This document shows, in pieces, positions 5,061-37,182 of a stretch of DNA of 64,000 nucleotides (position 1 is its first letter; each line of letters starts with the position of its first letter). The notes under the pieces are model-generated. The model made no database searches and was not told the origin of the DNA. It saw only the letters and a list, made by a program, of their open reading frames with translations. The stretch lies in the NCBI GenBank assembly GCA_964106915.2, contig OZ066919.1; one strand, 5' to 3'. The stretch comes from Podarcis gaigeae (Eukaryota). A program made the position numbers and the translations under genes.

Positions 5061-5094
5061 GACGTTTCGACGAGGTCTCACTCGTCATCTTCAG
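5061..5094 (-). ncRNA. Minimal type I hammerhead ribozyme in the pLTR (same sense as FAF1 pre-mRNA)
   Basis: Minus strand CUGAAGA-U-GACGAG-UGAGAC-CUCGUC-GAAA-CGUC: CUGANGA box, 6-bp stem II, GAAA, GUC triplet. Confidence 0.8.
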
Positions 5095-5824
5095 GCTGGT
5101 GCTTTCGGCTTCTTGTTACTGGAACAGAGCGGGATCTCAATGTTTGAGTTCCTATAAATACTGTAGAGGGGGTGTGGTGTCTAGCCTCCAATGTTCTGGG
5201 CAGAGAGGAAGTTCCCAGGCTAGTGTGCCTTTTCTTCTTTTGTTCCTTAATTACTTGAGAGATACCTTGAGTGATTTCTTGAGTGATATCCTGAGTACCA
5301 CTTAGGTGGGTCATTAGGTGTGGATTAGTTGCTAAAGTCTTTGTGTCTTGACCTCTTGAACTTTGTGAAGAGTTTTCCTGAGAAGATGGCTGTATTGCAC
5401 TTAGTTGTGCTTTGGCTTGGCTTCGTGTATAGGGGCGAGCTGTGGTTTTGTGGCTTGTGTCAGCCAGATCTGTGTAGGGATTGCAGGGGGGTGCAGCATC
5501 CGGAGGTGCCACCATGGATTGGCTACTGGATGGTGTCAGTAATTCATCTGTGGAGAGGGTCTGGGTTTGGGTCTGGTGTGGTTGATTGGTGTTGGCGTTC
5601 TGTGTGCCTCTGGATCTGGTGTCAGTTTTTGTGGAGAGGGCTAATTTCCAGATGTCTGGCAAGCGGGATGTGTCGTCACGCTTGTTCATGTTGTGAGGGT
5701 GTTTCTCTATCTCGATGGCTTCCATGATTATTCTCTTGTGGTGATGTTCCCTCTACAGTATTTATAGGAACTCAAACATTGAGATCCCGCTCTGTTCCAG
5801 TAACAAGAAGCCGAAAGCACCAGC

Positions 5825-10460: not shown

Positions 10461-11039
10461 ATGCTTTAACATCTGGGGAAGAATGTCTACAATACATTCT
10501 CCTTTCATTCACAAGCATGGACTTCTGTCACACATTCATTTTCTGGTGGAATTCTCAACTTTCAGACCATTAACACTAATCATATGGCTGTTAACAGCAC
10601 TTAGAACATTTAGAGCAAGCACTTAGAATGCATACACATCACACCATTTTACTATTACCTACAATAATTGTATTGAAAGGCTTCTGGAGGTGCTGCAATG
10701 GAAGGAGGAAGAAAAGTGATGATGTGTGGGTCTAGGGAAGTTTTCCTTCCATTTTTGAGTCCTGTGCTCTGGTGTAAGACAACTGACTTACGCCACAGGT
10801 TGGGACAAAAAAAACCTCCTGTCTTTTAGTCCCACGCTCTGGCATGGCCAAGCCAAAGCGGGACATCTGGGATTGGGATCAGAAGCCTTTCATGGAGTTT
10901 AACAAAATAATCAAACAAAAATTCAAATATCCCCAAATACATATTAAGACACTAAAAACACTGCATCACAAACTTTACCAATACAGTAGCAACAACATAG
11001 CTGTTGGACTCCAGGTAATATTTAACCTCAAAGAGTAAG

Positions 11040-11160
11040 AGGAAAAAATGCATGTTCAATTGGCTTTGGAAAACTGACAGTAAGAGGGACAAGTTACTGG
11101 TAATCCCTACAGGGAGAGAGTTCCACACCTGGGGTGTGACGACAGAGAAGGCACCATATG
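11040..11160 (-). mobile_element. L2-clade LINE 3' fragment
   Basis: Minus strand AFSVVTPQVWNSLP, the L2 ORF2 C-terminal motif. Confidence 0.7.
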
Positions 11161-11475
11161 AGGGTAACCTCTGCTTCACTGCATCTCCTGAAGTATTTTT
11201 GAACAAATCTTTCAAGAGTCCAACAGAATTTCAACACTGACTTTTGTTGAAATTTCTAAAAATGAATGAAACTGACTGAAGTACCACTTCCTAGGATTTC
11301 AGAAGTGGTAGAATCAGTTTGCTTAAGATAAGTCTCTTACTTAGGCAGAAAAAAAGAGATCTACTTAGAATTCTGCATGCTGTTTCTAATTTTCAAACAC
11401 AAAACATTTAACCATGTTTTGAGCACCAAGCTCCACCTGTTTACCAAGAGCAGGAAAGATATAGAAAGCAGTTAT

Positions 11476-14966: not shown

Positions 14967-15352
14967 TGTCGTGAGCCAGGAATCAGGTTCACCTGCTGAA
15001 CAGCATCCTGAAAGGGGAGGAGGTGGAGTGACTCCACCTGCAGTTGATCAGCCTTCAAGGACTCAGAGGGGAAGACACTGGTGAGAACCAACTGGCTTCA
15101 GGCTTCTTAAGCAGTTTCCAGCAGGAATCAATTGCTGGTAACAATGCTAGTAGTTCTTGGCCCTACCTTGCTGCTCCCTGCTCATCTTGACCCTGCACCC
15201 AATGATCACTGGATTCCCTGACCCCTAGTCATGTGGACTGCTGTTTGCCTGACCCTAGGACTGGACCTGACTTTGAATGCTAACTCTGCCTCCAGGCATG
15301 TACACCTCAGAGACTCTCCCACTCCACTGAGCTCAGCAACCAGACTATGACA
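14967..15352. mobile_element. Solo LTR
   Basis: Starts TGTCG, ends TGACA, perfect 5-bp TSD AAAGG (14962-14966 and 15353-15357); GC-richer than the flanks. Confidence 0.85.
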
Positions 15353-23147: not shown

Positions 23148-23580
23148 ACCGCATCTCTTTGTTGAAGGTTCCACTTGTTGATAAAATGCTTTCCAGGTCT
23201 TCATTGGGTGATGGTGACTCTAAATGTATCCTCCAAGGCGCCAGAAAAGGATGCAGTCATAATGCCTCTCAGATATTTCACTGGTTCTCTTGCTCACTCT
23301 CCTCATTCACCTAACCCTGGCAGACAGGAGGAAGAGAATGGCCCAGGAGACTTGTGAATGAACAGAGTGGGGAAGGGTGTGTTGGACGCACAGTGGCGGC
23401 ATCCTGAGAACATTAGCCTGTGAAAAGTAAATCACTGAACAATAAAGGCGGCGGGGGGGGGGGAGCAGTCCCAAAATCTATTATTTAAACAGACGGTATA
23501 CTATGTAACATATATTATAAAGATACACTGAGTTTCCTGAGTTCTTAAAACAGTTTAATATTCAACTCCAAATTATTTAC

Positions 23581-23735
23581 CTTGCTCTGTTTGCTTCTTT
23601 TGTCATATCCCATGCCCAGGTTATGAAGTTCTGACTAAGGTAGGAGACGATAGATTCGGCACAAAGCATTTGAGAACAGAACACGTTGGTTAGCACACTT
23701 TCGTCATGGTGGAGGTAGACAGCAAGCAGCTTTCT
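23581..23735 (-). CDS. FAF1: FAF1 exon (~exon 13), 155 bp, phase 0-2: RKLLAVYLHHDESVLTNVFCSQMLCAESIVSYLSQNFITWAWDMTKEANRA(R)
   Basis: Acceptor gtttttcag|AGA, donor AG|gtaaat; within ORF 23577..23765. Confidence 0.98.
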
Positions 23736-25869
23736 CTGAAAAACAGGGGGGGGGAGTGTTAGCATGATATTTTGATTTATTTGCCCACACCACCACCACT
23801 TTCAGATATAAGTGAAATTTCTGTCTCAGCCCTAACCAAATATTTTGGAGGCATCCTATTGATATTGCTGGAACATCCTTTCACCTATCTCAGCACCCAG
23901 CACTCCGCTGCTGCTTCCATAGAAACAATTCTTTGTTTAATGGTATTTGGAGAGAAAGTGAACTACTCTATTCTTGCGATCAAGAGCCCATGGCCAAAAT
24001 GTTTATTTAAGAACATTTTTTCTACAGAAATAATAATGTTGTGACTATTATATAAAAAGAAGAAAAGTTTACATTCTGTCATGATCACCAAAATTGAATT
24101 TAGAATTCAATCAGTTGCAAATACTTACTACTGTACAACCAATAGCTGATTTTAATGCAATGGCATTAGGATAGGAGGTTTACTATGCATTAGGGAGAGG
24201 GAGAATTAAACAAGGGATGTAGCACCTTATTTCCTTTTGTGCACAGCAACACACACACACACACACAAAATGGATCTAGGGAAATTGTGTATTCAAAAAT
24301 TTCTCTGGATCTGGGGCAAAATCTCTCATTTACTTGGGTTTTAGTCCTATGGAAAGAGCATTCCTGTGCAAACTAATCCCTGATTCCCAGGCCACATAGA
24401 TAAAACTATATTGTGCATTGGGTAACATCCATCTATTCACAAAAGGGACAGAGATCCAGCAGAAAGGGGTGAGGCAAGACAAGGCAATTTCCCCTTCCAC
24501 ACTGTTCTGCAGGGTACCCACCTCTGGAGCAGCATGGGAGCTCTATGGGAAACTTGCCTCACCCACCACTAACCCCTCCACCCAAACTCCATTCATGCAA
24601 AGTCTCGATCTAACAGAGTATATTTATCTCATAACAACACTGATTTTTGTTTCAATTTCCTTTTTAAACTAACTAAATTGTTGAGTTTACAGTAAGTTAC
24701 TCTAGCACACTATGCTGTTGCTTTGTTTTACCCAACATCTCAGGGAAATTGATAACTATCAAATTGTCTAGATTCTGAATTACGTTTGAAAATACAGTAG
24801 CTGATATAAAAAGAAAACTCACCAAAAAAATTCTGATACCACACAACTCATAGCTTGGAAATGTTATATAAAATTTTACAACATAAAATTTCATTCATTT
24901 ACAAGTATTAATTTCACAGGTAGTTTCAAATCGTAATTTCATAGGTAGTTTTGTACTGCTGGTAGTTTCACAAACATTATTCCAGGAGGCTGCAGTGGCA
25001 AAGCCCACCATAGAAAGATGAGGTATAGTTCAGTTCTTTATATTTCAGCTTCTGTAGACAACAGACAAATTTAACTGAAACTTATTAAAATATTGTCCTG
25101 TTAATAAGCCCAAAACGTTACCAACCTGCAACTTTTTTCAACTAGCCTAAGAAAGTAGGAGCCTGTATTTCCATGGTGGAAATATGGGCTTCTTGGGTTT
25201 TGTAAGTGCCTTCTACCAAATGGACTGATGTGGGGAAGATGTTTTGCTGGCTCCAGAAGCAGTGAATCCCATTCATCTGCTGCCAGCATGGGAACCAAGT
25301 GGGTTGGTGGAGCAGGGATGGCTTTGTCCACCAGCCTGCTCAATTTCCTTACAACCTATGGCTACCTGGCAAGCTGTTCTCACATAAGGCTATTAAACCG
25401 CTTCTTCTTTAAGAGACACGAGTAATAATGAGCAAGCATCTTTCATGAAAACTATTGTCTTTTTATGATACATTCAGATCTGCCCCTCAAGGAATTGGCC
25501 AAGATGCAATTAGCTCAACACATAATGTGGGTTCTGAAATTGTGTTTCTGGAACACATTTTAAAAACAGTTTGCAATATGGCAAGAGGCAGGGGTTATAG
25601 GGAGTAAGAAATAGCACTGGGCATGCCCAAAGTAACTCTTTGGATCAGAGCCAATGTATTTAACCAGCTAAGAATTGCCAGTTAAAAATAAATATGTTGA
25701 ATGCATAGAAACATCTGTTCTAACAACATATTCATTTAAATCAGCACATTTATAAAATACAGAGTTTGTGTAAGTCCTCAAAATCGATTTTAAAAGTATA
25801 AAACATTTCAACAGTAGACTTTGGAAAAGGGATTAGACATTTACATTAATGTTTGTCCGCTTTAATTTA

Positions 25870-26221
25870 AAAAGCGATTCAAAACCAAGTACACATGCAC
25901 CAGAAAAGGCCACCAATAAGCCTAACATGCACAGTTCCATATAAGTGCAGTCAACAATGTTGACTGAAACTAAACTTGAAAATCCAGGGCACTAATGCAC
26001 AATATCAGGCAATAAAACAGCATCTCAGTGGTGATATTTAATTTAAAAAAGAAGAAAGAGGCAGGAGAAGATCAGGCACTGTCTGTTTTGGAGGATCAGC
26101 CATTCTGCATTTCAAAGCGTGGATCTCTGCAATATCCAGGTTACTGTGCTAGAATCTCCACTATTATATAGCAGTTGTAAGAGAGGGAGGGCAAAGATGT
26201 GTTTACTCAGTGATTAGGGCC
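25870..26221. promoter_or_regulatory. Candidate conserved intronic enhancer containing a palindromic DMRT/SOX site
   Basis: Repeat-free block about 2.2 kb from exon 13; palindrome at 25948-25966. Conservation not tested. Confidence 0.5.
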
Positions 26222-28319: not shown

Positions 28320-28950
28320 GCTATTGACCAATTATCTGGACTCAAGACCCACCAACCCACAGGGCTTCCATCTTGCCAGTTTACTGGCCTTTATCTAGCC
28401 CATCACTGAGCCCTAGCATCAGCAGCCCAAGGATTGCGCAGCCTCTTGATTTGGCTATTTCAGATAAAAAGAGCTGGGTATCAGCAGCATACTGTTGACA
28501 TTTCCCCCCAAATATCCAAATGATTTCCTTCAATGGCTTTTTTATAAATAACATTAGGGACAAGATAGTACCCCACAGCACCCCAAGGCCCAGGGTGCCA
28601 AAAGACAATCACCCAATTGAAAATGACCCAACACCTTCAATATCTATCCCACCAAATCAGCTTGGAAGGATACCATGGTGGTTGATATCAAAAGCCACTG
28701 AGAGATTAAGTAAAAATAACAGGTTTGCACTCTGCCTGTCCTTGTCCCAATAAAGAGAGTGACCAAGGTCAATTTAGTCCTATAACTAGGCCTAGATCCA
28801 GATTGAAATGGGTCAAGATAATCTGTTTCATCCAAGAGTACCTGCAACTGTTGAGACACAACCCTCTCAATCACCTTTCCTAAAAAGGGAGTATTTGTGA
28901 CCAGGCAGCAGTTGTCACAGACCAATAGGAAAAGCATAGGCTTTTTCAGG
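28320..28950 (-). mobile_element. L2-clade LINE reverse-transcriptase fragment (degenerate)
   Basis: ORFs 28644..28937 (PFLGKVIERVVSQQLQVLLDETDYLDPFQSG) and 28381..28608 (QQYAADTQL, a decayed YADDTQL). Confidence 0.9.
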
Positions 28951-29756
28951 TTTCAGGTAATATGTTTGAACAATAATAGTCTTTTGGGGAAAGGAATTGC
29001 AGTGCTCAGCCAGGATCTGTAGGTGGTACTGAAGACCAAGTTGTTGCTGACTTGATTTGAAATCTTTTGTTTTTAACTTTTGACCTAAATGTTTGCATTT
29101 AAAGTAGGTGTTGTTGTTGTATTATACAGTGCCATCCACATTGCTAGGCAAGCAGGGCCCAAGCAGACCAGAGTGCAGCAGCCTGCAGTTTAGTGTCCAG
29201 ACCCTGAAAGCCAGAGAGGTGAGCAAACTGGCTTTCCCAGGCCCAGGGAGCCTGAGGGGGGCAAGGGAAGGAAGGAGAAGAGGGAAAGCCCCATCACACA
29301 AGTTATAGTCCTTGCACAAGGCTTCTGCTGACAGGGCTGCTTAGGTGGATCTTCTCTCTCAAATGTTATTTCTCCACATGCCATTCAACATGATTTCACA
29401 CAACCATTTTTACCTCACATTTAATATCATGAAGTAGAACTAGGCAGCTGATAATTTCAGCACATTTAAAAATCGGAAGTACACAGATGAGTAAATTTGA
29501 TAACCATATTGGTGAATCATTTTCAGCATCTAGATCTAAAGAACACATGATGAAGAAAACTCAAAAACCAAGCAATAATTTCATCCCCCTCCCCCAAAAA
29601 ACCCAGTGTAAACCAATTAAGCATTTAGGATCAACCAAAGATTCAGAAACTTTGTAAAATAAGGATAACTAAATCTGTTTTAACTAAGAGCACTGGTTTA
29701 AATAAATGTAGTACTTTGCTTTTCCCTCTGTGGTGACGTACACACTCTTTAAAAAA

Positions 29757-36032: not shown

Positions 36033-37182
36033 CTGTGTGAATACCAAAAAGTTTCAATTAATTTTTTTTAAAATAAAAATAAAAATAAATGGGTTCCAGC
36101 ACCTAATTTTTTTTTTTTTTTACAAAAACACAGAATAACTACATTTTCTAGGAAGCAATATTTTAAACATTTTATTTGCATTCAACACTTCATATCAACA
36201 CACCACAATATATTTCAGGCATATACACATTTTTCATTTCTATATAGATAAAATTGTTATCTATCAAACTGAGAGCTACCAGGTCCAGAAATGCAACTCT
36301 GAGATAAAGAAGACTGACACTGAGAGCAGTCTCAAGTAAATGACTTTGGCATGCCTGAAATGTAAACGTTATCAATCTTATACTTAGCGTAAAACTTTAA
36401 GTTAAATGATAGAATGCCAGCTTTAAACAAACGATCCCACAAAAATCAATTTCTGTTCTTATTTGTTCATTTGTCTTCCAAGGGATAATGGGAAGACCTT
36501 CGCAGGAACAGGCCAGTGTTGGTAGCATAAACAGAAACTTATAGAGGAAGGGAGGGAGGGGTTTCTAAATGACACAAATGGAGAGCTGCTCTCCATGAGA
36601 CATTTGCAGAGGTTTGCACTTTGCTTGTTACCCAAAATTGCAGAAAGCATAAGTACTTCCTGCCACACTTCTGACCATATGAAGTCGCTCAGAATAACAA
36701 AGCTTCAAAATCAAAACTCACAAGTTTGAGCCACTAAAGTTCCCATGGTAGAGCTAACTGCACGAAACTGCATTAGCTACAAGAACAATTTGTAGAGTAC
36801 GGTAAATAGTATTGTCTCCTCACCTTCCGTAACTGCATTAAGTTTATTCATAGCCATTCGACCCAGCCTCAGCTAACTACATTTCCTTCCCTTTCTTCCT
36901 AATCTGGAATCGGATGGAAAAATACTCTCAACCGGATGTTAAACTATCCCACTGCTCACTGAAAGCAGAGAAATTCAAAAGGTAAAATAAGACTTGTCCT
37001 TTTGAAGGTAGCTGGGTAATAGGAATATTGAAGAGAAGAGTGTAGAAATTGAAAACTTGCTCCTACAGGCAGCTGGATCCTACTCAAAAGCCACCCTTCC
37101 ACCAAAACCAACACTGTCAGTCTTGTAATGGCTGCTGGAGATAGGCACCTAAGAACAGTTCTCAAAACCTGAGCTGCATGGC

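Follow-up and report, generated by a model that had tools for sequence, protein, structure and literature searches.

A perfect 19-bp palindrome in a FAF1 intron of Podarcis gaigeae may best be explained as a SOX site overlapped by forkhead-type half-sites, lying in a probable long-range DMRTA2 enhancer and forming at best a weak DM-domain site. We put this reading first, although tentatively. The SOX/forkhead reading appears likely from the motifs present, as a judgement of likelihood and not as a demonstration. An overlap of SOX and forkhead motifs is likelier than a DMRTA2 self-regulation switch, because the base most strongly selected by vertebrate DMRT proteins is absent. If the SOX/forkhead reading is right its import is small, namely a further cluster of motifs in what is probably a developmental enhancer; transcription-factor motifs in the introns of bystander genes beside developmental regulators are of a known kind. 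No published description of the palindrome motif was found in the literature covered, which excludes most subscription papers and several supplements. The sole literature match to its inner 15-mer was a C. elegans synapse paper.

The window, i.e. the whole 64,000-nt stretch of DNA analysed here, corresponds to G000:C15:55,490,001-55,554,000. Positions 25948-25966 read CAGTCAACA-A-TGTTGACTG, in which two 9-bp arms form a perfect inverted repeat about a 1-nt centre at 25957; length, arms and centre agree entirely with the initial annotation. The arms stop at 9 bp, with no extension even when mismatches are allowed. The 401-421 bases around the palindrome are single-copy in the genome, and there are 27 near-matches of the palindrome at up to 2 mismatches. 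The features discussed below are collected in Table 1.

Table 1. Features in and around the palindrome, in window coordinates. Binding sites are candidates, recognised by their motifs.
Feature	Position	Strand	Remarks
Perfect 19-bp palindrome, centre 25957	25948..25966		Exact 19-mer and inner 15-mer unique in the genome (one exact place each in 1.51 Gb)
Forkhead-variant half-site GTCAACA	25950..25956	+	One change from RYAAAYA
SOX HMG-box motif AACAATG	25953..25959	+	Same 7-mer as the SOX9 gel-shift probe described in PMC5499551
DM-domain core ACA(A/T)TGT	25954..25960		Flanks agree at +/-4 and +/-5 with the DMRT1 probe; both strands have T at -6
Second forkhead-variant half-site (+ strand TGTTGAC)	25958..25964	-	1 nt from the first
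Canonical forkhead site GTAAACA	26200..26206	-	240 bp from the palindrome
Probable enhancer DNA around the palindrome, single-copy and non-coding	25780..26200		Bounds are those of the query, not of the element
FAF1 coding exon, residues about 372-423 of P0013	23580..23735	-	Borders the host intron on its downstream side
FAF1 coding exon, residues about 345-371 of P0013	35951..36031	-	Borders the host intron on its upstream side; high end approximate

The AACAAT motif that had been pointed out in the palindrome is present, and it is contained in the longer AACAATG, which corresponds to the SOX HMG-box motif (A/T)ACAAT(G) over 25953-25959. The full motif is found on the + strand as a single putative site. 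The palindrome is not a SOXE paired site, because the mirrored strand has T at the centre. The minus strand of the palindrome may resemble SOX2-PAX6 composite sites, and what we take, from its match to the consensus, to be a TCF-like motif lies within 250 bp. The canonical forkhead motif is RYAAAYA (PMC8034652), and TGTTGAC is named as a FOXA2 target common to human and mouse in the text of PMC2794179. The presence of SOX and forkhead motifs proves nothing in itself, since both are common in the window (21 occurrences of AACAATG and 26 of GT(A/C)AACA). Three canonical forkhead motifs lie near the palindrome (window 25688-26206), at a density not clearly above the window average.

As read from the sequence, the GTCAACA and AACAATG motifs together account for 7 of the 9 pairs of the palindrome. 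In neural progenitors, AACAATG would be occupied by a SoxB1 monomer. A forkhead protein would take up one of the GTCAACA halves at any given time and would exclude SOX, given the bases common to the motifs. The symmetry would then need no dimeric reader of the palindrome: the SOX AACA lying over the forkhead TGTT would give 4 pairs, the second forkhead half would supply 3 further pairs, and 2 pairs would be left to chance. The probability of these two leftover pairs arising by chance is about 0.07 (window pairing rate of 0.263).

The palindrome is inside FAF1 (minus strand), in the 12-kb intron between the two exons of Table 1, and 2.2 kb from exon 23580-23735; the analysis covered the unmasked part of this intron. 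Eight FAF1 exons were mapped in the window, and a UBX exon just beyond it matches FAF1 proteins, the best match being a Podarcis muralis entry. DMRTA2, identified by its DM, DMA and DMRT5_DMB domains, is located past the 3' end of FAF1 on the minus strand, and a CDKN2C-like exon past the 5' end. The gene order DMRTA2-FAF1-CDKN2C is the vertebrate arrangement. The initial annotation had placed the palindrome beside a DMRT gene, which is correct in part: DMRTA2 is the nearest DM gene and the palindrome, within FAF1, is on its upstream side, but no DM exon was found inside the window and the DMRTA2 start codon is 89,661 bp from the palindrome centre. Elsewhere in the genome, two different DM-domain exons lie 11 kb apart on one strand (L006 and L007, at G000:C15:56,766,472 and 56,777,527); one of them looks DMRTB1-like and the other presumably resembles a DMRT2-type domain. 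A divergent DM exon was observed at a fifth locus, on C17 (L008). The window also harbours retroelement-like open frames at 5078-5752, 10952-11230, 28644-28952 and 58722-59186, and these four gave no Pfam matches.

In genomic regulatory blocks, the introns of bystander genes carry enhancers for a neighbouring developmental regulator. The surround of the palindrome has the corresponding features (single-copy non-coding DNA, in a bystander gene near a developmental regulator), and it is a probable long-range enhancer. The FAF1 intron would carry this enhancer for DMRTA2, a target suggested by synteny and by the regulatory-block logic. Conservation of the surround is only suggested by the word counts, which reached close relatives and no distant vertebrates. 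At least half of the sampled surround words were carried by 20 of the 24 sequencing runs listed (the best holders), while the remaining four carried next to none and were uncounted. With organism A set aside, five other organisms keep 0.88-0.90 of the 41 words of the 421-bp surround, a share that stands without a neutral control. It corresponds to about 1.4-1.7 changes per 421 bases, and the palindrome may be among the 4-5 words that are missing.

The human VISTA elements Hs194 and Hs200 belong to the same DMRTA2-FAF1-CDKN2C syntenic block as the palindrome. Going by the human FAF1 exon positions, Hs194 presumably falls in the same FAF1 intron, near the same exon. Its likeness to the palindrome surround is one of position alone, and its activity applies to the lizard DNA only if the two are orthologous. 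Hs194 is 400 kb from CDKN2C (mouse midbrain, 7/9) and Hs200 is 270 kb from CDKN2C (forebrain, 10/11), both being detected in zebrafish and shark (PMC3541358). Hs194 was tentatively assigned to CDKN2C, not to DMRTA2, in the same work (PMC3541358). No motif-level dissection of Hs194 or Hs200 was found in the literature. FAF1 is named in a table of gene groups in an ultraconserved-element study (PMC13513235). The Dmrta2 inputs named in the relevant parts of PMC8695973 and PMC5688529 are Wnt, Lhx2 and Emx2-type factors, with an Lhx2 element 6.4 kb downstream, and not an element of the FAF1 intron.

It is rather unlikely that the symmetry arose by chance, or was perfected by template switching during replication, and that no protein reads the 19-mer in particular. 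Palindromes of such a size are ordinary, since control DNA totalling 670 kb (the 200 kb upstream of a DMRTA1-like gene, 270 kb flanking the locus and 20 scattered stretches) had 7 loop-1 palindromes with arms of at least 9 bp, approximately one per 96 kb. The window has 3 of them after low-complexity palindromes were dropped, while the average over 200 order-3 Markov simulations was 0.475. From 135 cores in 733 kb and six further pairs at 3.3e-4, simple arithmetic gives about 90 palindromes centred on a DM core expected in the whole genome. The inner 13-mer occurs 47 times, compared to 31 for its reversed control. The exact 19-mer was also found in 14 metagenome stretches, all 14 with unrelated flanks (12-38% identity); a 24-mer gave 0 matches in metagenome contigs. 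As single-stranded DNA, a 76-nt stretch folds no better than its shuffles (z -1.1), also in agreement with chance.

Against chance, the surround seems constrained among relatives, the block of the palindrome holds deeply conserved enhancers, and none of 118 control ACA(A/T)TGT cores had arms of at least 8 bp. Symmetry centred on a DM core is locally uncommon: among the 17 ACAWTGT cores of the window, that of the palindrome at 25948-25966 is the sole one with arms longer than 5 bp. For a distance of up to 100 kb from one of the 8 DM exons found, the expected number of such palindromes is about 0.07, ignoring the post-hoc choice of the motif; this proximity figure is suggestive at most, because the motif was picked after the fact.

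Of the two other palindromes of the window with 9-bp arms, the one at 15021-15039 has 15 exact copies in the genome and is consequently part of a dispersed repeat. The one at 36578-36596, whose surrounding DNA has no other match in the genome, is probably due to chance.

The initial annotation had proposed auto- or cross-regulation through a DMRTA2/DMRT3 site, possibly in competition with SOX; in this model DMRTA2 would repress its own enhancer through a site of low affinity. We consider this model unlikely. Its DM-site part stands as far as the core: ACA(A/T)TGT is intact and odd-centred, as in the site selected by DMRT1 and DMRT5, the bases at +/-4 and +/-5 fit probe 1RE, and the match of the inner 13-mer to the DSX/DMRT1 optimum is indeed 11/13 (Murphy 2007, PMC1931443). 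However, both mismatches fall at the outermost positions (T for G at -6 and A for C at +6), and DMRT1 selected G at -6 in all of its sites. A C at this position strongly impaired binding, C and not T being the change tested (PMC1931443). Both DMRT1 and DMRT5 binding suffered most from alterations of the left half, at -1 to -6 other than -4, and DM binding was modelled as beginning on a strong left half (PMC1931443). There is some asymmetry in the selected sites, one strong half being favoured, whereas the palindrome is symmetric to +/-9 and lacks a strong half, because perfect symmetry puts T at -6 on both strands. DSX, unlike DMRT1, has no strong preference at -6 (PMC1931443), and the DSX-based match therefore overstates the fit to vertebrate DMRT proteins. 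G at -6 on at least one strand is found in 7/7 of the probes listed in PMC1931443 and in the three core-bearing probes among the six listed in PMC5499551. Compared with what vertebrate DMRT proteins (DMRT1/3/5) bind with high affinity, the palindrome has the core but no G at -6 on either half, where at least one half should carry it.

Other observations agree with a DM-domain protein. The DMRT7 probe 7RE has, as its weaker half, the same sequence as one half of the palindrome (PMC1931443), and conserved enhancers of Pax6 and Gsx1 are repressed by DMRTA2 according to the text of PMC12186615. A core centred in arms of at least 9 bp was obtained in just 2 of the 200 simulated windows. The nearest DM gene, DMRTA2, encodes in the lizard a DM domain that retains the recognition-helix sequence of DMRT1; since this helix is kept, the rule at -6 likely carries over to it. 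By contrast, a preprint describes the Emx2-bound enhancers of Dmrta2 as not co-bound by Dmrta2 itself (10.1101/2024.09.19.613943). Better DM candidates exist nearby, because 12 of the 26 cores between DMRTA2 and the end of the window carry the G at -6 on one strand or both, those at 43683 and 55811 among them. The 13-bp DSX/DMRT1 optimum has 47 places in the genome, none of them close to the FAF1 locus; its reversed control contains a CpG and is unusable as a control.

The 19-mer is consequently predicted to be a weak DM-domain site at best, and DM binding leaves the symmetry beyond the 13-bp core unexplained. DMRT autoregulation via the palindrome is possible but weakly supported; the search produced no evidence for DMRTA2 acting on itself through it. 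Two other DM cores were observed in the window, one at 43677-43688 (G at -6, left half like that of probe 5RE) and one at 55805-55817 (G at -6 on both strands). Judged by their bases, both are closer than the palindrome to what vertebrate DMRT proteins prefer.

A cooperative forkhead homodimer site, with two inverted halves selected together, is quite unlikely. The twin GTCAACA halves have the orientation of a DIV site and account for 7/9 pairs, and the inner 15-mer occurs once in the genome compared to 5 times for its reversed control. We take DIV3, from its numbering, to be the arrangement with a 1-nt spacer. FOXO1 forms dimers on DIV0 and DIV2 and is mainly a monomer on DIV1, DIV3 and DIV4 (PMC8034652). 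The palindrome shares with the DIV0 and DIV2 palindromes of that work the two inverted forkhead-like halves in the same orientation; it differs from them in its variant halves (C for A at position 3, not the canonical RYAAAYA) and in its 1-nt spacer, where the halves of the dimer-forming sites overlap or, as in DIV2, have no spacer. Cooperative forkhead dimer binding is not favoured, because the spacer is 1 nt and FOXO1 is mostly monomeric on such a site.

Three further origins were rejected. The palindrome is not derived from a transposon or MITE, as it is single-copy and has no longer inverted arms. An RNA hairpin was discarded with 0 Rfam matches across the window. A paralogous element by the DMRTA1-like gene was also discarded: the best match in the 200 kb upstream of that gene had an E of 0.39, and none of the 27 near-matches of the palindrome is on its contig.

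A more elaborate version of the SOX/forkhead reading would be a three-way switch in the DMRTA2 enhancer, an improbable scheme. SoxB1 would activate via AACAATG and a forkhead protein would occupy one half or the other; DMRTA2 would displace both proteins only at high concentration, the bases at +/-6 being deliberately sub-optimal; the resulting thresholded negative feedback would shape the DMRTA2 gradient, and the 19-mer would be conserved. DMRTA2, whose expression in cortical progenitors is graded, is a microcephaly gene. If the switch were true, the palindrome would be a concrete 19-bp target in which mutations could show how DMRTA2 keeps its own level in check. It would also give a clean case, away from the gonad, of SOX and DM proteins competing for a single sequence.

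Inverted repeats were also observed outside the lizard locus. In 3 of the 14 metagenome matches (L088, L092 and L093) a far longer perfect inverted repeat is centred on the 19-mer; these repeats are unrelated to the lizard locus and could be hairpins or fold-backs of the assembly. Long GC-rich perfect inverted repeats, with arms of up to 22 bp, are common to L069:8272-8373 and L029:2397-2424, and likely represent a hairpin-bearing repeat family.
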